Shown here piece after piece: positions 50,693 through 62,826 of a stretch of DNA of 64,000 bases; positions within the stretch are counted from its first letter, which is position 1, and the number at the start of each line of letters is the position of its first letter. Location: the NCBI GenBank assembly GCA_963696385.1, contig CAVOKF010000008.1:768001-832000 (forward strand), read 5' to 3'. This DNA is from an uncultured delta proteobacterium. Lineage in GTDB: Bacteria; Myxococcota_A; Polyangia; Polyangiales; Polyangiaceae. A model generated the notes under the pieces. That model searched no databases, was not told the origin of the DNA, and saw nothing but the letters and a program-made list of their open reading frames with translations. A program made the translations under genes and the position numbers.

Positions 50693-51067
50693 ATGCCGAT
50701 CAAGACCAAGCGCTGGAACGATCCCCTCGAGCCCGACGACGGCCACCGCCTGCTCGTCTGCCGCTACCGTCCCCGTGGGGTCCGGAAGGACGCCGAGATC
50801 TGGGACGCGTGGTCGCCTCAGCTCGGTCCGAGCCGCGAGCTGCATGCCGCCCTTTATGGCAAGCACGGACCTCCGATCGACTGGTCCGAATTCCGCCGTC
50901 GCTACCTCGCCGAGATGGGCGGGCACCGGGAGGCGATTGTAAACCTCGGCGCTCGCGTCGCGGCCGGCGAGACAATCACCCTGCTCTGCTCGTCGGCATG
51001 CTCGGACCCCGAGCGATGTCACCGGACTTTGCTCAGCGGGCTGGTCGCGGGGGCGGGAGAGGGGTGA
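50693..51067 (+). CDS. DUF488 / YeaO-like protein
   Basis: DDGHRLLVCRYRPRGV, LGPSREL, WSEFRRRYLAEM, CHR. Confidence 0.85.
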   Translation: MPIKTKRWNDPLEPDDGHRLLVCRYRPRGVRKDAEIWDAWSPQLGPSRELHAALYGKHGPPIDWSEFRRRYLAEMGGHREAIVNLGARVAAGETITLLCSSACSDPERCHRTLLSGLVAGAGEG

Positions 51068-51164
51068 CCAAGCCTGAAAATGGCGCCGCGATCGAGAGCC
51101 CCACCGGCGCCCGGACCAGCCCCGACGGAACGCCTCCGTTCGTGCGATCATCGAAGCCATCGCG

Positions 51165-51464
51165 ATGCGACCCTCGCCCGCGGCGGACTGTCGTGCCCGG
51201 CCAGGAGAGTTCGCGCCGGTCGTCGATCGGGCAAAGTGCGAGGGGAAGTCCGAGTGCGTCGAGGTCTGCCCATTCCACGTGTTCGAGGTCGGCCGCATGG
51301 GCGACGCCGACTTCGCGCAGCTCGGCGTGTTCGGCAAGCTCAAGAGCATCGCGCACGGGCGGAAAACGGCCTACACGCCTCGGGTGTCGGCTTGCCAAGC
51401 GTGCGGCAAGTGTGTTGAGGCGCGCCCCGAGAAGGCGATCAAGCTGTCTCGCGTCCAGGTGTGA
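51165..51464 (+). CDS. 4Fe-4S dicluster ferredoxin-like protein (one ligand Cys replaced by Arg)
   Basis: CEGKSECVEVCP and CQACGKCVEARPEKAI. Confidence 0.75.
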   Translation: MRPSPAADCRARPGEFAPVVDRAKCEGKSECVEVCPFHVFEVGRMGDADFAQLGVFGKLKSIAHGRKTAYTPRVSACQACGKCVEARPEKAIKLSRVQV

Positions 51465-51935: not shown

Positions 51936-51967
51936 TCGTCGGCCCTTCCAGAAACCCTTGTTTTTTC

Positions 51968-51981
51968 GAGCGGGAGAAGGG
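51968..51981 (-). repeat. Short copy of the tRNA-Gly 3' end (distal att scar)
   Basis: GAGCGGGAGAAGGG is identical to 62754-62767. Confidence 0.6.
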
Positions 51982-52291
51982 TTCCGAAACCGGCCAAAAC
52001 AAAGGCGGCCGACCACGCGCACTTGCCGCGAATGCCGCTGGTTTTGCGAACCCTGACCCCGACACCGCGCAACACCGGACGCCACCGAACGCCATGGCGT
52101 TGGGCAACTGGGGGGAAACGGACGTCGCCGGGCGAAGGGCCCTGGTCGGACGTCGAAGGACGGCGGTCGTTCGGCGCCACGCTCGCCGACGACCGGGTCG
52201 GTCAGGCCGCATCGTGGTCGGGCAAAGAGCCCGCGGCCCATCATCTGATGAGTTTGCGCGTCAGGCCCCGGTCGAGCGTCGCCCCGCGACA

Positions 52292-52300
52292 TGTTACCAT
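52292..52300 (+). promoter_or_regulatory. Extended -10 element for a probably leaderless toxin-antitoxin transcript
   Basis: TGTTACCAT lies 6 nt upstream of ATG 52307, with no RBS. Confidence 0.45.
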
Positions 52301-52306
52301 ACGCGT

Positions 52307-52528
52307 ATGCGTCCGGTCGAAGCTTGCTACGAAAATGGCTTCCTGAAGCCCGCGCAACCTCTCAAACTTCGTCAGGGCGAGAAGGTCGCCGTCGTCGTTC
52401 TCCGTCGTCCTGACCCCGCACGCTGGGACATGAAGCGCCTTGCGGTCGGCAGCGCCGAGGACGAAACGCTTGCCAGCGCCGGTCTCGGCGCGTGGGCCGA
52501 TGCACTCGACGCCGAGGACCGTCGTTGA
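52307..52528 (+). CDS. Antitoxin, DUF104/AF2212-like
   Basis: VEACYENGFLKPAQPLKLRQGEKV; overlaps the toxin start (TTGA). Confidence 0.85.
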   Translation: MRPVEACYENGFLKPAQPLKLRQGEKVAVVVLRRPDPARWDMKRLAVGSAEDETLASAGLGAWADALDAEDRR

Positions 52529-52871
52529 GGCGTGGAGAGATCTGGTGGGCTGACTTAGGTGGCCACCGGCCGATGGAGCAAACGGGCAGGCGCCCCGTCG
52601 TGATCTGGCAGAGCGACGCGCTCACAAGCGTACTCGCGTCCGTGCACGTCGTGCCGCTTACGACGAACCTCGATCGTGCTCAGCTCGCGGGCACCGCTCT
52701 GCTGCAGGCAACCGAAGGGGATTGCCCGATGACTCCGTGGCTCTCGCTTTTCAAATGCGCGCCGTACCGAAGTCCGCGCTGGTAACGCGTGTTCGCCCTT
52801 TGACCGAGACAGAAATGTCGGAGCTCGAACTCGCGACCGATGAAGCGCTCGGGCGTGTCGAGCCCGAATGA
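52525..52871 (+). pseudogene. PemK/MazF-family toxin, frameshifted in a G run near 52717-52720
   Basis: RRGEIWWADL...GRRPVVIWQ...VVPLTT, then LPDDSVALAFQMRAVPK...ELATDEALG in another frame. Confidence 0.85.
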
Positions 52872-53360: not shown

Positions 53361-53595
53361 GCGTGCTCGCTGAGCACCAGCGACTTGATGAATTGTCGGA
53401 AGACGATCTGATCTGCCTCTCTCCCGGTGGATCGGTGCATCTAGAGATGCTCGAGAGTAAGGACTATCTGGCTGCTTGTGTCGAGGACATTCGGATGGCT
53501 GACGAAGCGGCGGCCAATCGCGTCGCTCTCAGGATCGGTGGCAACCGGCACGCCGCTCCCGAAAGTCGTTGCATTCCAACGACTTTCGTGCCTTG

Positions 53596-53636
53596 TAGAG
53601 CGGGAGAAGGGATTTGAACCCGTCCACCTTGGCAAG
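53596..53636 (-). repeat. Duplicated tRNA-Gly 3' half (att site) with a 5-bp deletion
   Basis: TAGAGCGGGAGAAGGGATTTGAACC-CGTCCACCTTGGCAAG compared with 62752-62797. Confidence 0.9.
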
Positions 53637-53896
53637 AGGGTGGGCGTCAGAGCGGGAGCGGGGAAAAGCCGGGCGATCGTCGCTCTGGCTGCCCGCCAGG
53701 TCGCGCCTGCGACCCCCCTCCGGAGCCGGCCGATCGGTGTGATCGACCCCTCGCGGGCGTGCAGTGGTGCACGGACCGGCGGGGGGCGTTCGCCGTTAGC
53801 CTACGACTTCTTCACGGACCGGAGCGCAACCGGCCCGACGCTCGGAAGCCTGGGACGTGCATCCGCCGTGACGCTCGTACCTGGGTACATGGTGAT

Positions 53897-54469
53897 CTAG
53901 GTTCGCCGCCGGCGGAGGCTGGGGCACTGCGCGGCACGCTGCGGCCCGAGCAGCGTGTGCACCCACTGCTCGTGCTCCGGAAGAATGCGCATGCGAGCAT
54001 GAACTAGGGCGGAGAAGACCGCGTCGACGAGCCGCGCACCAAGTGCGGCGCCCACTGCGGGGTCCGCGAAAATCGCACCGCTCGAGAGGAGCGTCACCGT
54101 AGGCAGATGGGCCGCAGCAACACGTCGTCCCTTGCGTTCATCGATGGCGACGGGAAGTCCAAGCGCTTCACCGGCGGCCAGGGCCGCAGCCTCCCCGTCG
54201 TCCAGGTCGTCGGGCGCGTCCGCGCCGGTGAGTTCCACGAAGCGCAGGAGCGCCGGGCCGGGGAGCTGAATCTTCTCGAGGAGGCCCGCTCCGATCAGCG
54301 GCGCCAGCGGATCGCCAGACGGCCGCGGTTCGAGCGGATGCCGGATCACTTCACGGGAAGTGACGGCGACGACGATCCGTCGCCCCTGAAGCGCTGCGAG
54401 AACCCCCTCGGCCTGACCGCTGCCGAGGATGTTCAACATCACGCTCGTGTCGAGCACGACGACGCTCAT
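53897..54469 (-). CDS. PIN-domain protein (putative nuclease toxin)
   Basis: VVLDTSVMLN, SREV, DLDDGEAAALA and AIDERKGR supply the PIN acidic residues. Confidence 0.85.
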   Translation of the reverse strand: MSVVVLDTSVMLNILGSGQAEGVLAALQGRRIVVAVTSREVIRHPLEPRPSGDPLAPLIGAGLLEKIQLPGPALLRFVELTGADAPDDLDDGEAAALAAGEALGLPVAIDERKGRRVAAAHLPTVTLLSSGAIFADPAVGAALGARLVDAVFSALVHARMRILPEHEQWVHTLLGPQRAAQCPSLRRRRT

Positions 54470-55617
54470 CCCGCGTGCGCCTCGATCGCGGCGTCGATCG
54501 CGTCGACGGAGGTGAAGGCGTCGATCGCGCGCCGGAGCTCCACGCGATCCATCACGAGCATGTCTGCGAGTTGGCCCTCGCTGTAGAGCCCCTGCTCGTG
54601 GGCCTCTGCGGCGAGCATCAGGAGGCGCGCTCCGGGCTCCGTGCTCTCGCCTTCCTCCTGGCTTCCGAGCACGCGTTGCACGGCCTCCTCATCGAGCCCC
54701 CGATCCTTGACGGAGTCGTAGGTTCCCTGCGGCAGCAGCTCCAGCCGCTCCAACTGGCGCGTGAATGCCTCGACCGACACTCCAAGCCGGTGTGCACCCA
54801 AGATCAGGTGCCGCGCGGAGAACCTGCCTTCTTGCCCGACGTATTCATCGAAGATTCTACGCACCGTCGCGCTGGGCATGAGGAAAGCCGCAGCGAACGC
54901 GTCAGCGAAGACGTCGTCGGGATGCTTTCCCACGAGTGTGAAGGCGATGCTTGGCTCTCGACGGGTCGTGAGGAAGTGAGCAAGCTCGTGCGCCAGCGTC
55001 CACCGGCGCCGGGCGCGCCTGTGCAAGCGGTTGAGCAGTACGCACGCGCCCAGCTCGTCATGGAACGCGTAGACACCTGCGATGGAAGAGGGCAGGGCGC
55101 GAACGAAGACGCGAAGTCCGAGCTCGAGCTCCAGGAGCCCGACGAGATCAGGAATCGGTCCGAGCCCCAAGCCGAGTCGAGAGCGCAGTTCTGCCGCCAG
55201 CTCCTCGGCCTGCTTGTCCAGGCGTCCACGCCCAGGCCTCCGCTCGGGCGGGTAGTCGATGGGGGTTACCTTGTGGAGGCGGTGCTCGAGCTCGACGTAG
55301 GCCGCCGCGAGGTCGTGAAGGAGCGTCAGGGCCTGCACGCCTTCTCGATCCGCCTTTCCTGCGCGGCCGGTGCTCTTGCGGCGAAACTGCCCGACGAGAT
55401 CGACGCGAACCGCGGTCGGCCGGAGGAACGAGTGCACGCCGACCCCATAGAGCGCGGCGAGAGCAACAAGTTCCTCGGGTCGTGGCTGTCGGTCCCCCCC
55501 TTCGATTGCAACGAGCGTCGTCCGGGCGACGCCGAGTTTCTCTGCCGCGTGCTCCTGCGTCAGTCCGGCCGCCCCGCGAGCGACTCGAAGTCGTTCCCCT
55601 AGCTTTGCTGGATCCAT
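54466..55617 (-). CDS. XRE-family HTH fused to an ImmA/IrrE (M78) zinc metallopeptidase
   Basis: LGERLRVAR...LTQEHAAEKLGVARTTLVAIEGG; RRRWTLAHELAH (HExxH); ADAFAAAFLMP. Confidence 0.92.
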   Translation of the reverse strand: MDPAKLGERLRVARGAAGLTQEHAAEKLGVARTTLVAIEGGDRQPRPEELVALAALYGVGVHSFLRPTAVRVDLVGQFRRKSTGRAGKADREGVQALTLLHDLAAAYVELEHRLHKVTPIDYPPERRPGRGRLDKQAEELAAELRSRLGLGLGPIPDLVGLLELELGLRVFVRALPSSIAGVYAFHDELGACVLLNRLHRRARRRWTLAHELAHFLTTRREPSIAFTLVGKHPDDVFADAFAAAFLMPSATVRRIFDEYVGQEGRFSARHLILGAHRLGVSVEAFTRQLERLELLPQGTYDSVKDRGLDEEAVQRVLGSQEEGESTEPGARLLMLAAEAHEQGLYSEGQLADMLVMDRVELRRAIDAFTSVDAIDAAIEAHAG

Positions 55618-56972
55618 GGATCACCGGGTCCTTGCTCAGAAGTCACAACCTGACGCAACCAACTTCTTTCGGGCACCGCGTTGACGAAGCCGCTCCACTC
55701 CTCCGCATGCTTCGCGAAAAGGCGGCCGAGCTTCGTCTCGACCTCGGCGGACGGCCGCCCCACGGACCTCGCCGTCTCCAGCACGTGACCGCGGTAGTTC
55801 GGCAGCTTCGCGGCTACGCCCGCGAGCTCGTCGAGATCCACCGCGGCGTACGTTCCGACCTCGCGATCAGCCGGCTGCGCATCCGCCGGGAGGTCCGCGT
55901 CGACGAGAACGTCGGCGTAGTAGGTTCCAGCGTCCTCGACGAGGCCAGCCGCCCGAAGGGACTGGCGGCGGAACATGCAGCCGGAGCAAAGCCCGCAGTG
56001 GCTCGCGGACACGTTCGGGTGCTGCCGGCGGACGTTTCGGCTGCACGAGCGCGTCCGCTGCCATCCTTCGAGGGCCTTGCGGGCGTGCAGCTCTGCAAGC
56101 ACCTCCCCCTTCGTAACCCACAAGTGCGGCAGCTCGAACGGCGGCAGCACACCCCATAGGTGCTCGAAACATGCGCCTAGTTTCTTGATGAACATGGGGT
56201 GGCAACCGGAGACGGGTTGCTCGATGCCGAACGGCACGAAGGAAGGCCCAAGGCACCCGATGCCGCTCTCGCCGATCCAGATGCGAGCGGCGTTGTTTCG
56301 GCGCCAGGCGAGGGCAGCCAACGAAAAGAACACGAGGGTCCGCGTTCGATACGACGGCTCCGCGTGCGAGCCTCCCGAAACCGTGAACGGAACCGCCAGC
56401 GCGGGCGCCGAGCGATCGCGATCCGGGAGAACCGAGTGCAGCGAGCGCGCGCCGTGCTGTGCATGGACGAGCAAGAGCGGCGCGCCGTCGTTCTGAACGC
56501 GGTGCTGGGCGACCGTGGCGAACGAGTCCAAGCCGCCGCTGTACGGCGCGACGGTCGCCCCGCGAAACTCGCGCGGCAACTGCGGCAGGAAGAGCTGACG
56601 GAGCTCGTCGGCAGCCGTGCGGGGACGAAATTCGAGGCGCCAGAAATCACCGCTCACGTCGTGCAGCAGCGACACCAGCTCCGGCGAGACGCGTTCCCAT
56701 TCGGCAGGCAGATACACGGGCACAGAGAGCGCGACCGCTCGGCCCCATCGACTGCCCCGTCGCCGCGACACGCGCCGATCCGCGAAGGCGATCGAGGCGA
56801 GCACGACGAGCAAGTCGACGTCGATCTCCTCGAGCGGCGTACTGCTGCACCGCTCGAGTGCTCCGCGATCGAACCGGAGCTCGGGGCCGAGGGCGCAAGA
56901 GATCGCATCGTCGGGCGCGGGAGCGCCGGCCTGCTCGAGGACAACGGTCGAGTGCTCTACCGCGGCGTTCAT
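55599..56972 (-). CDS. QueC-like PP-loop enzyme of the QatC type (7-cyano-7-deazaguanine synthase-like)
   Basis: YSGGLDS PP-loop; EPSYRTR; TKGEV; SC...HCGLCSGCMFRR zinc site; QatC-like N-terminal extension (ADRRVSR..WGR..VPV...SGDFW). Confidence 0.88.
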   Translation of the reverse strand: MNAAVEHSTVVLEQAGAPAPDDAISCALGPELRFDRGALERCSSTPLEEIDVDLLVVLASIAFADRRVSRRRGSRWGRAVALSVPVYLPAEWERVSPELVSLLHDVSGDFWRLEFRPRTAADELRQLFLPQLPREFRGATVAPYSGGLDSFATVAQHRVQNDGAPLLLVHAQHGARSLHSVLPDRDRSAPALAVPFTVSGGSHAEPSYRTRTLVFFSLAALAWRRNNAARIWIGESGIGCLGPSFVPFGIEQPVSGCHPMFIKKLGACFEHLWGVLPPFELPHLWVTKGEVLAELHARKALEGWQRTRSCSRNVRRQHPNVSASHCGLCSGCMFRRQSLRAAGLVEDAGTYYADVLVDADLPADAQPADREVGTYAAVDLDELAGVAAKLPNYRGHVLETARSVGRPSAEVETKLGRLFAKHAEEWSGFVNAVPERSWLRQVVTSEQGPGDPWIQQS

Positions 56973-57376
56973 CGGCCCCCCCGTAGGTCAGCGTCTAGGT
57001 CGAGCCGAAGCTTCGTCGCGCGCGGCGGCGCCTCACCGGCAAGGTGACGACGCGCCAGACCCTCCAGATCAGCAGACCGCGCGGCCTCGCCGAAGCGACC
57101 CAGGAGCGCGGGGCAGTCGCGTGGGAAGTCGACGTTCCCCTGTGCACGAACCTCGCGCCCGACGACGCTCACGCGGTCCACGAGAGCTTGGGTCAGCGCT
57201 CGCCTGGCCGCTTCCTCGGCGGATATCCGCTGGTCTGCGATTGCTGCACCTTGACGAAGGAAGGACGCTTCGATCGCGCTGCGCGGCTCGCACGCCGGTT
57301 GAAAGGACTCGCCGGGGAACAGCGAGCCCTCGCCGGCGGCCAGCGCGCGTCGGAGGTAGTCGACGGTGAATGTCAT
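56969..57376 (-). CDS. 135-aa hypothetical protein, first gene of the QueC operon
   Basis: AGGA RBS 6 nt before ATG 57376; stop overlaps the QueC ATG (ATGA). Confidence 0.7.
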   Translation of the reverse strand: MTFTVDYLRRALAAGEGSLFPGESFQPACEPRSAIEASFLRQGAAIADQRISAEEAARRALTQALVDRVSVVGREVRAQGNVDFPRDCPALLGRFGEAARSADLEGLARRHLAGEAPPRATKLRLDLDADLRGGR

Positions 57377-57393
57377 CGCGCATCCTGAACACA

Positions 57394-57452
57394 AGCATAG
57401 TGTCACCGGGAACAATGTCAAGTCGTGCTGGATGTATGCCTGACATTGTCAA
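57394..57452 (-). promoter_or_regulatory. Sigma70-like promoter with palindromic operator boxes
   Basis: Minus strand TTGACA (57421-57416), 16 nt, TATGCT (57399-57394); palindrome TGACATTGTCA at 57441-57451 and a related box over the -35. Confidence 0.7.
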
Positions 57453-57595
57453 TTCGCTCTCGGAGTGCGACGAGCCGGAGCCGGCGCTGGCCTCAGCTCC
57501 AGCGCAGGCCGGGAAACGCAGACGACAGCGGGAAGCGGCTCACGTGCCGCTCCTCGGGCCCGGCGCCGCGCGCGCGGGCCCCGCGCAGGCACTCG

Positions 57596-57897
57596 CTATC
57601 CTCCGCCCCCGCCCGGCGGTGCGCCGTTGGTAGCGGCAGGAGCCTGCTTGGCGCGAAGTCTTTGGATCACGGCGACCGTTCGATCCCCGATGCCCGGCGT
57701 GAAGGCATCCTTGCTCGCGTCGATGTCGGTGAACTCGTACGCGACCTTTCCGTCCCAATTCGTCGTCGGCGTGAGCTGCAAGGTCGAGGGGTCTCCGTCC
57801 AGCTCAAGCTCCGTCGGCAGGGCCAGACGCCCCCGAACTGCCCCGAGGGACAGGCCGGTGAACGAAGCGATCTCCTTCGCAAGCCCCGTGGAGCCGC
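57596..57897 (-). pseudogene. Start-less C-terminal gene fragment, unknown family
   Basis: About 100 open codons (GLAKEIASFTGLSLGAVRGRLALPTELELDGDP...) with no plausible start or RBS. Confidence 0.35.
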
Positions 57898-60654: not shown

Positions 60655-60861
60655 GCATCGGTCGCGCTCACCTCGCCGGCACGGCTTTGCTGCAGGCGAC
60701 TGAGGGAGGTTTACCCGATGACTCCGTGGCTCTGGCCTTTCAGATGCGCGCCGTGCCGAAGTCCGCGCTTCCTAACCCGTGTCCGCCCTTTGACCGAGAT
60801 GGAAATCTCGGAGCTCGAGCTGGCCACCGATGAGGCTCTGGGCCGCGTAGAACCGGAGTGA
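60655..60861 (+). pseudogene. Second PemK/MazF toxin copy, 5'-truncated and frameshifted
   Basis: RAHLAGTALLQATEGGLPDDSVALAFQMRAVPK...LELATDEALGRVEPE, near-identical to 52670-52871. Confidence 0.85.
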
Positions 60862-62586: not shown

Positions 62587-62724
62587 TCGCGCAGCATCGC
62601 GATGCCTTGGCTTTGGGCAATGGGTGGGCAATGCGGTAGAGCCGCGCCTGTAAGTCGCGCAGCATCGCGATGCCTTGGCTTTGGGCAATGGGTGGGCAAT
62701 GCGGTAGAGCCGCGCCTGTAAGTC
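62587..62724. repeat. Perfect 68-bp tandem duplication containing TGGGCAA direct repeats
   Basis: Identical units start at 62587 and 62655. Confidence 0.92.
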
Positions 62725-62754
62725 CCGGTAGACGAACGGCTTTCTGGCCCATAG

Positions 62755-62826
62755 AGCGGGAGAAGGGATTTGAACCCTCGACGTCCACCTTGGCAAGGTG
62801 GCACTCTACCACTGAGTTACTCCCGC
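62755..62826 (-). tRNA. tRNA-Gly (GCC), CCA not encoded
   Basis: GCGGGAG/CTCCCGC acceptor stem, D loop AGTGGTA, anticodon loop TTGCCAA, T loop TTCAAAT, discriminator U. Confidence 0.97.

Follow-up and report, generated by a model that had tools for sequence, protein, structure and literature searches.

A four-gene bacterial cassette joining a QatB/QatC-like pair to an RmrA-like and PIN gene pair

In the solved QatBC complex, the N-terminus of QatB is reported to occupy the active site of QatC, and QatBC is presented as the minimal defence unit (PMC13279940, PMC13376578). In type IV CBASS, the QueC-family enzyme Cap9 is reported to adenylate 7-carboxy-7-deazaguanine (CDG) and to conjugate it to the partner protein CdnD (10.1101/2025.04.06.647259). 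The pairing of an HTH-COG2856 (DUF955) protein with a PIN (COG2405) protein has been predicted to form a three-component toxin-antitoxin (TA) system (PMC2701414, PMC5499597) and is mentioned in PMC10440598, which gives the ImmA-type protease of RosmerTA as a confirmed antitoxin. We found no paper describing a QatB/QatC-like pair together with a repressor-protease and a PIN nuclease. Here, we describe such a cassette, which is widespread in bacteria, is made of four genes and was previously undescribed.

Gene order, island and promoter

In the window, i.e. the whole stretch of 64,000 nucleotides analysed, the cassette consists of four minus-strand ORFs: gene 1, listed as orf135 (56969..57421 from a TTG, 150 aa, or 56969..57376 from an ATG, 135 aa), gene 2, a QatC-family QueC-like PP-loop ATP pyrophosphatase (55599..56972, 457 aa), gene 3, an RmrA-like XRE and M78 peptidase protein (54466..55617, 383 aa), and gene 4, a PIN-like nuclease (53897..54469, 190 aa). 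The coordinates agree with an earlier sequence-only reading of this DNA, and so do the junctions, with ATGA overlaps at 56969-56972 and at 54466-54469 and one of 19 nt at 55599-55617. The tRNA-Gly island with fragment-rich flanks proposed in that reading was also recovered. Its proximal border is a tRNA-Gly(GCC) found by ARAGORN (62754..62826, minus strand), and its distal, att-like border is a 26-nt exact direct repeat of the tRNA 3' end (53596..53621, no strand assigned), identical to 62752-62777 and located 275 nt past the PIN stop. Since this copy lies beyond the PIN gene, the cassette sits within a tRNA-Gly island of ~9.1 kb. A third copy of the repeat (81%) is present at 51966-51991. The flanks hold fragments, i.e. 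a MazF-like ORF matching just positions 1-60 of a 109-position profile, part of an RRM and duplicated 3' portions of MazF. A Pfam scan of 77 ORFs at 44.5-64 kb (76 of the 86 listed ORFs of at least 75 aa and one shorter ORF) returned no match to KAP NTPase, TatD, CD-NTase, TGT or QueD/E families, in agreement with the previous statement that no QatA, QatD, CD-NTase, TGT/DpdA or queDE is visible here.

Gene 3 carries the Pfam domains HTH_31 and Peptidase_M78 (COG2856/ImmA-IrrE) and, as in RosmerTA, matches the PADLOC RmrA model over its full length (E 1.6e-30, residues 8-362), which supports its assignment as an XRE and M78 protein. The HExxH zinc peptidase motif, H210-E211-x-x-H214, is intact and invariant in 49 sequences. 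Gene 4 follows it directly with an ATGA overlap, as in the HTH-COG2856 and PIN pairs. It is of the COG2405/DUF3368 type with an additional helical C-terminal extension of ~60 aa, and its homologues carry PF11848. The AF2 model of gene 4 (pLDDT 95.1) has VapC 5ecw_A as best Foldseek match (E 4.3e-4, probability 1.00) and all of 34 sequences keep the acidic residues D7, E40, D91, E93 and D110, in support of the PIN assignment made earlier. Together, genes 3 and 4 look like a TA pair of the Rosmer type (HTH-COG2856 and PIN). Unlike in RosmerTA, gene 4 matched no PADLOC RmrT model, the only hit being a weak one to PDC-S70 (E 1.7e-4), and whereas RosmerTA by definition has two genes, the cassette has four, the QatBC-like pair preceding the TA-like pair behind one operator-bearing promoter.

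The scan of 53500-57650 showed this promoter as the sole promoter-like site, with 0.2 expected from shuffled sequences. It is sigma-70-like (TTGACA, 16 nt, TATGCT; 57394..57421, minus strand), with the -35 inside a proximal box, TGACATTGTTC (57410-57420, 2 mismatches), and the -10 ending 10 nt ahead of the native ATG of gene 1. A distal palindromic box, TGACAATGTCA (57441..57451, minus strand), could be the operator recognised by the gene-3 XRE domain. Among 48 distinct sequences upstream of related loci, 43 have at least one TGACAnTGTCA box (at most 1 mismatch) and 25 have two boxes, 31-33 bp apart; only 87 boxes were counted in total in the 512 kb scanned, and the box layout is kept in the relatives. 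This arrangement recalls CapH/CapP, ImmR/ImmA and DdrO/IrrE, in which palindromic operators likewise overlap the promoter and a conflict or stress operon is governed by an XRE repressor together with an M78 peptidase, as is predicted here; the PADLOC capP (E 7.2e-15) and capH (E 6.4e-07) models each match one half of gene 3. In contrast to these systems, gene 3 combines repressor and protease in one chain, with putative cleavage, and the genes controlled would be a QatBC-like pair and a PIN nuclease.

Conservation, spread and proposed working

Synteny was counted in the 70 loci with a strong QatC-like gene out of 112 fetched, using for each count those with enough sequence. The RmrA-like (XRE and M78) gene comes directly after the QatC-like gene in 55/55 loci, the PIN gene follows the RmrA-like gene in 48/49 (the exception being L042), and a member of the gene-1 family stands ahead of the QatC-like gene in 56/57 (the exception being L049). 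These loci belong to at least seven phyla, with identities of the QatC-like protein as low as ~30%, and by record title comprise Actinomycetota, Myxococcota, Planctomycetota, Binataceae, Verrucomicrobiota, Acidobacteriota and Alpha-, Beta- and Gammaproteobacteria. Of the 26 plasmids found to carry the QatC-like gene, 14 are conjugative, and the two inspected, from Methylocystis and Pannonibacter, hold all four genes with 4-nt overlaps; the phage records and viral contigs searched gave no copy of the cassette. Unlike in QatABCD, QatA (KAP NTPase) and QatD (TatD) are absent here and from 18 related flanks, and the output genes are the XRE-M78 protein and the PIN nuclease. The four-gene synteny across phyla, with no named system matched in full, bears out the distinct architecture suggested from the letters alone. 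Among 18 genome loci, unambiguous defence genes (R-M, AbiE, GmrSD or Shedu) occur within ~5 kb in only four, as a raw count; an Eco57I-type gene is also among the cassette neighbours. Six of these loci are flanked by genes for an integrase, a transposase, a plasmid Rep or an RT, and the flanks of three hold nothing suggestive.

Our preferred reading, held with moderate confidence, is that the cassette is a conserved, horizontally mobile operon that joins a QatB/QatC-like pair to a Rosmer-type TA pair, its role probably being phage defence, perhaps by abortive infection. The XRE domain of gene 3 would bind the paired boxes observed over the promoter and hold the operon low and, by analogy with RosmerTA and the HTH-COG2856 and PIN systems, gene 3 may restrain the PIN toxin too. 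More speculatively, the QatC-like enzyme could set a state of the gene-1 protein that couples infection or stress to the peptidase; upon loss of repression and neutralisation, the PIN nuclease would cut RNA and growth would stop. Such a working would tie modification by the QueC-like enzyme to peptidase sensing and a PIN effector, as had been suggested previously.

A clearly less probable explanation is that two independent systems travel together, namely a minimal QatBC-like defence pair and a separate XRE-M78/PIN TA that stabilises the island or plasmid, with shared transcription as the only cross-talk. Canonical QatBC alone is reported to suffice for some defence (PMC13279940), distant RmrA-like and PIN pairs stand alone in five other genomes of the phylum, with no QatBC-like gene in the 1.5-5.2 kb upstream of them, and the window keeps genes 2-4 intact despite a broken gene 1. 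However, the near-perfect coupling over such a large divergence, the overlapping stop and start codons and the position of the one operator-bearing promoter upstream of gene 1 argue against two independent systems, and no strong QatC-like locus without the TA half was found where the sequence sufficed, apart from the missing PIN gene of L042. We give slightly less credit still to an addiction or stress-response module with no phage-defence role, in which the QatC-like enzyme would modify its partner within a regulatory circuit (maintenance, competition or DNA damage), like ImmR/ImmA or DdrO/IrrE. The plasmid-borne copies, the plasmid Rep, transposase and integrase neighbours, the tRNA island of the window and the clear defence genes in just 4/18 flanks are consistent with such a module, and M78 peptidases are described as governing mobile-element and radiation responses. 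Nevertheless, such defence neighbours do exist, and both halves have proven anti-phage kin, QatABCD and RosmerTA (PMC10440598; 10.1101/2022.05.11.491447).

The gene-2 enzyme and its partner

The homology of gene 2 to QatC takes in both the N-terminal extension and the PP-loop/zinc core. It matches the PADLOC QatC model (E 1.1e-38), and its profile retrieved the QatC structures of the PDB (9vlk_A, E 1.9e-46; another, E 8.3e-44) with both the extension and the catalytic core covered, so that the long QatC-type extension noticed earlier does align to a solved QatC. The SGGLDS motif (S145-S150) and C310, C326, C329 and C332 are invariant in 41 homologues, in agreement with the claim of an intact PP-loop and zinc site. 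Compared with the motifs given in PMC13329287, gene 2 has the DxWxxxF, RxRxxxF, ExG, HP, P(x)4TK and CGxCxxCxxRR of QatC and its catalytic Asp (D53). Unlike QatC, it scores 140 bits with the NCBIfam QatC model, below the 280-bit cut-off, its C-terminal ~95 residues (in QatC the QatB-binding region) do not align, and the essential T278/T280 of QatC are replaced by V254/G256.

As in QatABCD, the gene directly upstream of the enzyme gene, which it overlaps, encodes a small all-helical partner whose extreme N-terminus is highly conserved. Gene 1 belongs to a new helical family (984 representative clusters at E<=0.001) of ~181-190 aa proteins, whose near-invariant N-terminus, M-R-D-[DG]-[IL]-[HY]-K, differs from the MGTS of QatB. 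In the 115 motif-starting sequences among the best 150 of the family, M1 and D3 are conserved in 115/115, R2 in 111/115, P10 in 95/115 and W15 in 94/115, and the motif falls on the start codon (ATG or GTG) in 54/54 related loci. No similarity to QatB was detectable, PADLOC and Pfam giving nothing for the family and the PDB profile search being empty. The full-length family model is all-helical (pLDDT 90.9) and gave no Foldseek match at E<=1e-3; its best VIA Z values, 6.4 and 5.4, fell among generic helical proteins. Whereas QatB has a tail of 30-90 residues, this family has no long N-terminal tail: ~12 residues precede the first long helix of the model, and the flexible part is a C-terminal tail with an LDxDEDL motif. 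By analogy with QatB-QatC and CdnD-Cap9, the N-terminus of gene 1 is most likely the protein substrate of the gene-2 enzyme; considering the short lead and the flexible C-terminal tail, it might not be the part that enters the enzyme.

Thus, as with Cap9 in type IV CBASS, a QueC-family PP-loop enzyme in a conflict system most likely acts on the terminus of a partner encoded next to it. Unlike type IV CBASS, the cassette is devoid of CD-NTase and of the TGT-like Cap10, gene 2 (457 aa) has QatC-type motifs whereas Cap9 (~185 aa) is described as keeping the QueC catalytic motifs (PMC13329287), and the gene-1 family lacks the Gly2 acceptor of the Cap9 target. As residue 2 is Arg, Met1 should be retained, and together with the replaced threonine pair this indicates that the gene-2 chemistry probably differs from the Gly2 modification of QatB and Cap9 targets. 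It is accordingly unlikely that gene 2 adenylates CDG and conjugates it to its partner in the manner of Cap9, an activity that its QueC-family fold, PP-loop and zinc site would otherwise suggest. The nucleobase-binding Tyr/Asp of QueC and Cap9 are reported as Thr/Thr in QatC (PMC13279940) and correspond to V254/G256 here, and the same source describes no CDG bound in QatBC and leaves the QatC reaction itself unsettled. In addition, no canonical QueC was seen in the host genome (96.4% complete), where the sole PF06508 match is an asparagine synthase, although TGT and one PTPS/QueD-like gene are present. The attachment of a deazaguanine to the partner, as first proposed, is for these reasons doubtful. 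That gene 2 could be a metabolic QueC, or a paralogue modifying tRNA or DNA with deazaguanine, as its public annotations as 7-cyano-7-deazaguanine synthase would imply, is very improbable, since its Pfam QueC score (17.9 bits, cut-off 22) comes from the zinc-site region 257-342 only, QatC cluster-2 motifs replace the canonical QueC motifs listed in PMC13329287, queD/E, TGT/DpdA and folE are absent nearby, and QatC reportedly fails to rescue an E. coli strain deleted for queC (PMC13329287); the earlier classification as QatC-type rather than housekeeping stands.

The copy in the window

The four genes had been read as intact, which holds for genes 2-4 and fails for gene 1. DNA alignment with the related loci L037 (QatC-like protein 82% identical) and L034 (61%) showed that gene 1 is short of 131 nt at ~57353/57352, directly after the codons for MRDDIHRRLP. 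Because 131 is not a multiple of 3, the conserved start (ATG 57383-57381) and first 10 codons (57354..57383, minus strand) stand in a different reading frame from the ~125 codons that are left. These form the remnant (56969..57376, minus strand), i.e. the C-terminal part of a ~181-aa QatB-analogous protein, which ends in LDLDADLRGGR and shares 43-99% identity with the ORFs found upstream in L034, L035 and L037, while the orf135 ATG (57376-57374) belongs to the other frame, 7 nt downstream of the native ATG. The deletion thus cost gene 1 its N-terminal motif and first helices in this genome, in which a search with the family profile found no second copy, the match here covering profile positions 53-190 only. 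With orf135 being a broken remnant, the QatBC-like arm is probably dead and the cassette copy in the window is probably inactive; genes 2-4 have perhaps stayed intact since the TA pair is addictive. A metagenome contig from an independent study spans the deletion junction, matching 57031-57477 with zero differences.

The four-gene cassette, its first gene and its putative operator

The cassette is read from the minus strand and consists of the gene-1 remnant (56969-57421; 150 aa if started at a TTG, 135 aa with the ATG at 57376 as start), the QatC-like gene 2 (55599-56972, 457 aa), the XRE-M78 gene 3 (54466-55617, 383 aa) and the PIN gene 4 (53897-54469, 190 aa). The overlaps described in an earlier sequence-only reading, ATGA at 56969-56972 and 54466-54469 and 19 nt at 55599-55617, are correct. 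A contig search with a single protein returned nothing, while a profile-based search gave 32 loci; 112 loci were fetched, and 70 had a strong QatC-like gene by the profile-based count. The neighbourhood survey proposed in that reading found the four-gene synteny conserved across loci. An RmrA-like gene directly follows the QatC-like gene in 55/55 informative loci, a PIN gene follows the RmrA-like gene in 48 of 49 (L042, the exception, has a truncated RmrA-like match) and a member of the gene-1 family precedes the QatC-like gene in 56 of 57 (in the exception, L049, the upstream ORF is divergent), several loci being near-duplicates, so that these counts are not independent. The gene-3 protein is the best conserved, with 40-78% identity where the QatC-like protein has 28-61%, and the more distant loci L031 and L083 (QatC-like 26-28%) retain the four-gene layout.

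The operon had been described as intact in the window, which did not hold: gene 1 is broken, and the ORF called orf135 is what remains after a 131-nt deletion. In the related loci, an ORF of about 180-206 aa reaches the start of the QatC-like gene or runs past it, as in L034, where the gene-1 and QatC-like genes occupy 663-1205 and 1205-2560. All these ORFs belong to one family, with the N-terminus M-R-D-[DG]-[IL]-[HY]-[KR], placed on an ATG or GTG in 54/54 loci, and with an L-D-x-D-E-D-L tail at the C-terminus of many members. In the window, MRDDIHRRLP (ATG at 57383-57381) is found in one frame and the remainder of gene 1 in another. DNA alignment with L037 and L034, the QatC-like proteins of which are 82% and 61% identical to the window's, revealed a clean deletion after codon 10 that takes out about residues 11-54 and shifts the frame, and the start of orf135 is an ATG 7 nt downstream of the native one, in the new frame. 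The metagenome contig L035 carries the same deletion, and a 447-nt contig from a different study spans 57031-57477 without differences. This match across the junction therefore identifies the deletion as a natural allele, present in the metagenome of at least one other study, and not an assembly error. No second gene-1 copy was found in the window's own genome, where the family profile matches only with its positions 53-190, at this place.

The QatBC-like arm of the window's copy is most likely inactive, gene 1 being frameshifted. Genes 2-4 keep every invariant residue, plausibly because the toxin would be set free if gene 3 were lost. At another locus, L004 (5431-7334), the gene-1 ORF, 346 aa long, continues into the QatC-like gene. 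The match to the latter is split there, with its best segment from 6375, and the public protein from this contig has only 289 aa; this looks like a second decayed copy of the cassette, for which a real frameshift or a sequencing error could be responsible.

With E <= 0.001 as the limit, the gene-1 family comprises 984 representative clusters, of which 106 remain at <= 1e-30. Among its best 150 members, the 115 that start at the motif have M1 and D3 in 115/115, R2 in 111, P10 in 95 and W15 in 94. A model of the family (pLDDT 90.9) places about 12 residues before the first long helix, its flexible part being the C-terminal tail, so that the tail could be the processed element instead of the N-terminus. 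The QatB-type MGTS N-terminus on a 30-90-aa disordered tail is absent from the family. Scanned with PADLOC, the 33 members together gave one weak match, to Csx1, and no Qat family, and neither the Pfam and PDB sequence searches nor the ESM Atlas (best score 0.78) gave an informative match. A Foldseek (PDB) search and two VIA searches with the model, one wide and one a second look, listed no QatB chain, the best VIA matches (Z 6.4 and 5.4) being generic helical proteins.

A TGACAnTGTCA palindrome, with at most one mismatch, is present within 150 nt upstream of gene 1 in 43 of the 48 distinct regions. Two such boxes, always 31-33 bp apart, are found in 25 upstream regions, and only 87 boxes exist in the 512 kb of all loci and the window, most of them the upstream ones. 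In the window, the distal box (57441-57451) is perfect and the proximal one (57410-57420) has 2 mismatches. The promoter predicted on the minus strand at 57421-57394 is the sole promoter-like site of the region, and its -35 TTGACA is contained in the proximal box. As this site ends 10 nt before the native ATG, the leader would be very short and the first AUG would be the out-of-frame one. Considering that the operator is kept across phyla and that the XRE protein is highly conserved, these predicted sites point to a single four-gene transcript autoregulated by gene 3.

Distribution and genomic surroundings

Record titles of the cassettes name Galbitalea, Kofleriaceae, Myxococcales, Planctomycetota, Binataceae, Verrucomicrobia, Acidobacteria and Alpha-, Beta- and Gammaproteobacteria. 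Among plasmids of cultured bacteria, 26 also carry the QatC-like gene; 14 of these are conjugative, and the others are mobilizable or non-mobilizable (6 each). The two plasmids inspected, from Methylocystis sp. MJC1 (NZ_CP107561.1, cassette at 118987-122726) and Pannonibacter phragmitetus BB (NZ_CP032314.1, 19963-23666), contain all four genes, annotated as hypothetical, "7-cyano-7-deazaguanine synthase", XRE and hypothetical. No cassette copy was matched in phage records and viral contigs. In the window's phylum, the PIN family occurs in 6 of 401 genomes and was not found in the one same-genus genome searched; its distribution there is patchy and accessory. The cassettes of L002 (a Galbitalea actinobacterial MAG) and L003 (a Kofleriaceae MAG) are nearly identical, which reflects either a very recent transfer or a binning error. 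In L031 (1786-10839), a 224-aa ORF, a QatC-like gene (466 aa), an XRE-M78 gene (400 aa) and a PIN-like gene (174 aa) have RepB-primase, DUF6908 and ArdC-like genes on one side and a DNA methylase gene on the other, a conjugative-element context.

The flanks of 18 genome loci were surveyed over about 5 kb on each side (112 ORFs). Unambiguous defence families are found in four of them (L004, L007, L011 and L024: type I/IIG R-M, AbiEi/AbiEii, GmrSD, Shedu), which makes a defence context suggestive only. Mobile-element genes (RT, Rep, integrase, transposases) are present in 6/18 flanks (L002, L012, L017, L020, L024, L025), several contain SNF2-NOV_C, UvrD/ResIII, ThiF-JAB, DUF499, SMC-like or PLD genes, and three (L003, L009, L022) hold nothing suggestive.

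In the window, a tRNA-Gly(GCC) gene lies at 62754-62826 and an exact 26-nt copy of its 3' end at 53596-53621, 275 nt past the last gene of the cassette. The cassette is therefore located at the far end of a tRNA-Gly island of about 9.1 kb. Such an island with fragment-bearing flanks had been proposed from the sequence, and MazF-like, RRM and MazF 3' pieces were indeed found: the MazF-like flank ORF matches positions 1-60 only of the 109-position Pfam profile, an RRM piece is also present, and two diverged MazF 3'-end copies (52719-52871 and 60708-60861, 81-90% identity) are 7990 nt apart. The MazF-like (MazF/PemK) ORF follows an AF2212-like (antitoxin-type) ORF within 52094-52871, and these pieces together resemble what is left of two MazEF-type modules on either side of the island interior. 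A third copy of the tRNA 3'-end repeat (51966-51991, 81%) suggests an older, tandem island remnant, and the MazF-like and RRM fragments are located between the repeats at 51966 and 53596. Directly beside the tRNA-Gly gene is a perfect 68-nt tandem duplication (62587-62722); just outside the island, 50693-51461 holds an ORF of the DUF488-N3a family (E 1.6e-32) together with a small ORF resembling 4Fe-4S ferredoxins.

GC3-based gene calling failed to tell sense from antisense ORFs in the window and was replaced by scanning 77 ORFs between 44.5 and 64 kb with Pfam, of which 76 came from a list of 86 and one was shorter. No integrase, CD-NTase or TGT family was matched among these 77 ORFs, and the QatA and QatD families (PF07693, PF01026) were found neither there nor in the flanks of the 18 related loci, in agreement with the earlier statement that QatA, QatD, CD-NTase and TGT are missing near the cassette.

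A QatC-family enzyme, a putative repressor-peptidase and a predicted PIN nuclease

Gene 2 had been considered a QatC-type and not a housekeeping QueC, and the profile searches bear this out: it matches the PADLOC QatC model with E 1.1e-38 and scores only 17.9 bits against Pfam QueC (PF06508; cut-off 22), through residues 257-342 alone, the zinc-site region, aligned to profile positions 131-209. Against the NCBIfam QatC equivalog NF041925, it gives 140.1 bits, below the cut-off of 280. A profile of 41 homologues matches the solved QatC structures 9vlk_A (E 1.9e-46) and 9zee_B (8.3e-44), with profile positions 49-361, i.e. the N-terminal extension and the catalytic core, aligned. The PP-loop S145-G-G-L-D-S150, the cysteines C310, C326, C329 and C332, and the catalytic Asp D53 are invariant in the 41 sequences. 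The motifs described for QatC cluster 2 by Libby et al. are D(x)4R(x)7WxR, DxW/YxxxF, RxRxxxF/Y, ExG, HP, P(x)4TK, CGxCxx..RR and the catalytic Asp (PMC13329287). This set is present in gene 2, as D65..R70..W76xR78 (with a spacer of 5 and not 7), D109xW111xxxF, R209xR211xxxF, E235xG237, H258-P259, P282xxxxT287-K288, C326-G-x-C329-x-x-C332-x-x-R335-R336 (the first Cys spacing being 15 rather than 19) and D53.

The substrate pocket differs. In QatC, T278 and T280 are reported as invariant and essential, in place of the nucleobase-binding Tyr/Asp of QueC and Cap9 (PMC13279940). They align to V254 and G256 of the window protein, from which the threonine pair is thus absent; in the HMMER alignment to 9zee_B, S-T-R-T-T-H-P stands against P-V-R-G-x-H-P of the gene-2 family. 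In addition, the C-terminal 95 residues or so of gene 2 do not align to QatC, part of the corresponding region of which holds QatB (PMC13279940; PMC13376578).

Two contigs (55784-56143 and 56626-56967) of a metatranscriptome run, from the study that is also the window's likely source, fall inside gene 2, the rest of the operon having no RNA cover in that run. As assembled contigs reveal neither strand nor level and may stem from residual DNA, they are no evidence of expression. At position 56011, also in gene 2, a G is read in 4/4 runs (three DNA, one RNA) and an A in the window, probably a strain difference.

Gene 3 joins an XRE HTH and an M78 peptidase in one protein (Pfam HTH_31 and Peptidase_M78), as had been read from the sequence. 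In PADLOC, it matches 15 RmrA models, the best with E 1.6e-30 over residues 8-362, and capP and capH match its two halves. Its H210-E211-x-x-H214 is intact and invariant in 49 family members.

Gene 4 itself has no Pfam match at E <= 0.1. Its homologues carry PF11848/DUF3368 (the COG2405/DUF3368 group), and its acidic residues D7, E40, D91, E93 and D110 do not vary across the 34 sequences compared. The AF2 model (pLDDT 95.1) has VapC toxins as best Foldseek matches (5ecw_A, E 4.3e-4, probability 1.00, TM 0.71 on the target), and this predicted PIN fold, together with the conserved acidic residues, supports the earlier assignment to the PIN nucleases. The RmrT toxin models of PADLOC do not match gene 4, although it adjoins an RmrA-like gene.

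Distant RmrA-like and PIN pairs (31-40% and about 30-38% identity) were found in five other genomes of the phylum, and no QatC-like or gene-1-like ORF was present in the 1.5-5.2 kb readable upstream of them. HTH-COG2856 proteins with PIN, including COG2405/DUF3368, have long been predicted to form a three-component TA (PMC2701414; PMC5499597), an ImmA-type protease is the confirmed RosmerTA antitoxin, and a link to PIN-like toxins has been noted (PMC10440598; 10.1101/2022.05.11.491447).

Comparison with known systems and proposed mechanism

Gene 2 shares with QatC of QatABCD the QueC fold, the SGGxDS PP-loop, the Cys4 zinc site and the cluster-2 motifs, but it is devoid of T278/T280 and stays under the NF041925 cut-off. 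The gene-1 family starts with MRD and lacks the MGTS/Gly2 of QatB, while QatA (KAP NTPase) and QatD (TatD) are replaced downstream by XRE-M78 and PIN. Gene 3 is of RmrA type (XRE HTH and Zn-peptidase), like the RosmerTA antitoxin, in a four-gene arrangement whereas RosmerTA has two genes. In type IV CBASS, Cap9 comes with a CD-NTase and a TGT-like Cap10, neither of which was matched among the 77 window ORFs. Each half is of a known kind, and the union of a QatBC-like pair with a Rosmer-type pair is new. The literature search found no paper on a QatC and Rosmer combination; among the matches listed, none joins QueC-like, QueC family or QueC homolog with ImmA, COG2856 or Peptidase_M78, and the search for QueC with ImmA and PIN gave only noise. 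In the Qat papers PMC13279940, PMC13376578, PMC13639016 and PMC13329287 and in the preprint on Cap9 (10.1101/2025.04.06.647259), no "peptidase", "toxin" or PIN domain was found. The QatC-cluster neighbourhood table of PMC13329287 has only KAP_NTPase and TatD, at about 34% each.

The sequences show an operon, with its conserved promoter and operator, for a QatC-family enzyme whose ATP and zinc sites are intact, a partner whose N-terminus is nearly invariant, an HTH-fused peptidase with an intact HExxH and a PIN fold with its acidic residues. By analogy with the QatBC and Cap9-CdnD structures, the enzyme would bind the gene-1 partner and modify its terminus, and by analogy with Rosmer, ImmR/ImmA and CapH/CapP, gene 3 would repress the operon and neutralise or control the PIN toxin. 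More speculatively, the modification state of the partner might be what the peptidase senses or cuts.

Gene 2 probably has a chemistry other than that of Cap9 and QatB, considering that there is no Gly2 acceptor, that the threonine pair is replaced and that the host shows no canonical QueC. An Arg at position 2 should block the removal of Met1 (rule cited in PMC13279940). The 96.4%-complete host genome, G000 (points C8:613300, C4:580184, C3:429724), has a single PF06508 match, an asparagine synthase. This genome has a TGT, its only one, on a contig other than the window's, and one PTPS/QueD-like gene, and the host may rely on salvage for queuosine. We tentatively put forward, as a reading with perhaps the lesser part of the odds, that another ATP-dependent modification, not Gly2 deazaguanylation, is placed on Met1-Arg2-Asp3 of the partner and would serve as a licence read or erased by the repressor-protease that releases the PIN toxin. 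One possibility for such a modification is adenylation on the Asp3 carboxylate or on the retained Met1 amine. If true, this would be a new wiring of protein modification to a toxin-antitoxin switch, and it would offer an accessible system for the output step that is still unsolved in Qat-type immunity.

The action of QatC on QatB, and how phages are stopped, are presented as open questions in structural papers of 2026 (PMC13279940; PMC13376578). The variant retains an enzyme of QatC type and a partner whose terminus is conserved. In place of the puzzling QatA and QatD, it has an output that is easy to assay, namely a repressor-protease and a PIN toxin under a defined operator. A different chemistry is predicted by the motif, which is MRD and not MG, and by the altered pocket; the comparison could therefore reveal the real needs of the QueC-derived reaction. 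The cassette is common and of interest to those working on Qat and CBASS-IV chemistry, an interest reduced by the broken copy in the window. Being annotated as a "7-cyano-7-deazaguanine synthase" among hypotheticals, it is therefore missed by both metabolic annotation and defence catalogues.

Canonical Qat was expected among the distant QatC-like loci, but all of them are other variants, none with a KAP NTPase or TatD. Their QatC-like genes encode 600-1140 aa and include, as a fused part, either a nuclease domain of DpnII/MboI type or a calcineurin-like phosphoesterase (Metallophos) (L027, L028, L089, L093, L095, L099, L105, L106, L032; L029, L030, L033), and most are preceded by an ORF of about 255-270 aa without Pfam family. 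These loci look like further undescribed QatBC-type variants. Together with the stand-alone TA pairs, the fusions therefore give the picture of a QatBC-like core that combines with different output modules, and that of the present family is a Rosmer-type TA pair. Gao et al. likewise remark that with Qat comes "a modular family" resting on the QueC-derived reaction (PMC13279940). In L027, a HEPN/RES gene lies next to the QatC-like gene, and L026 and L028 adjoin large serine recombinases.
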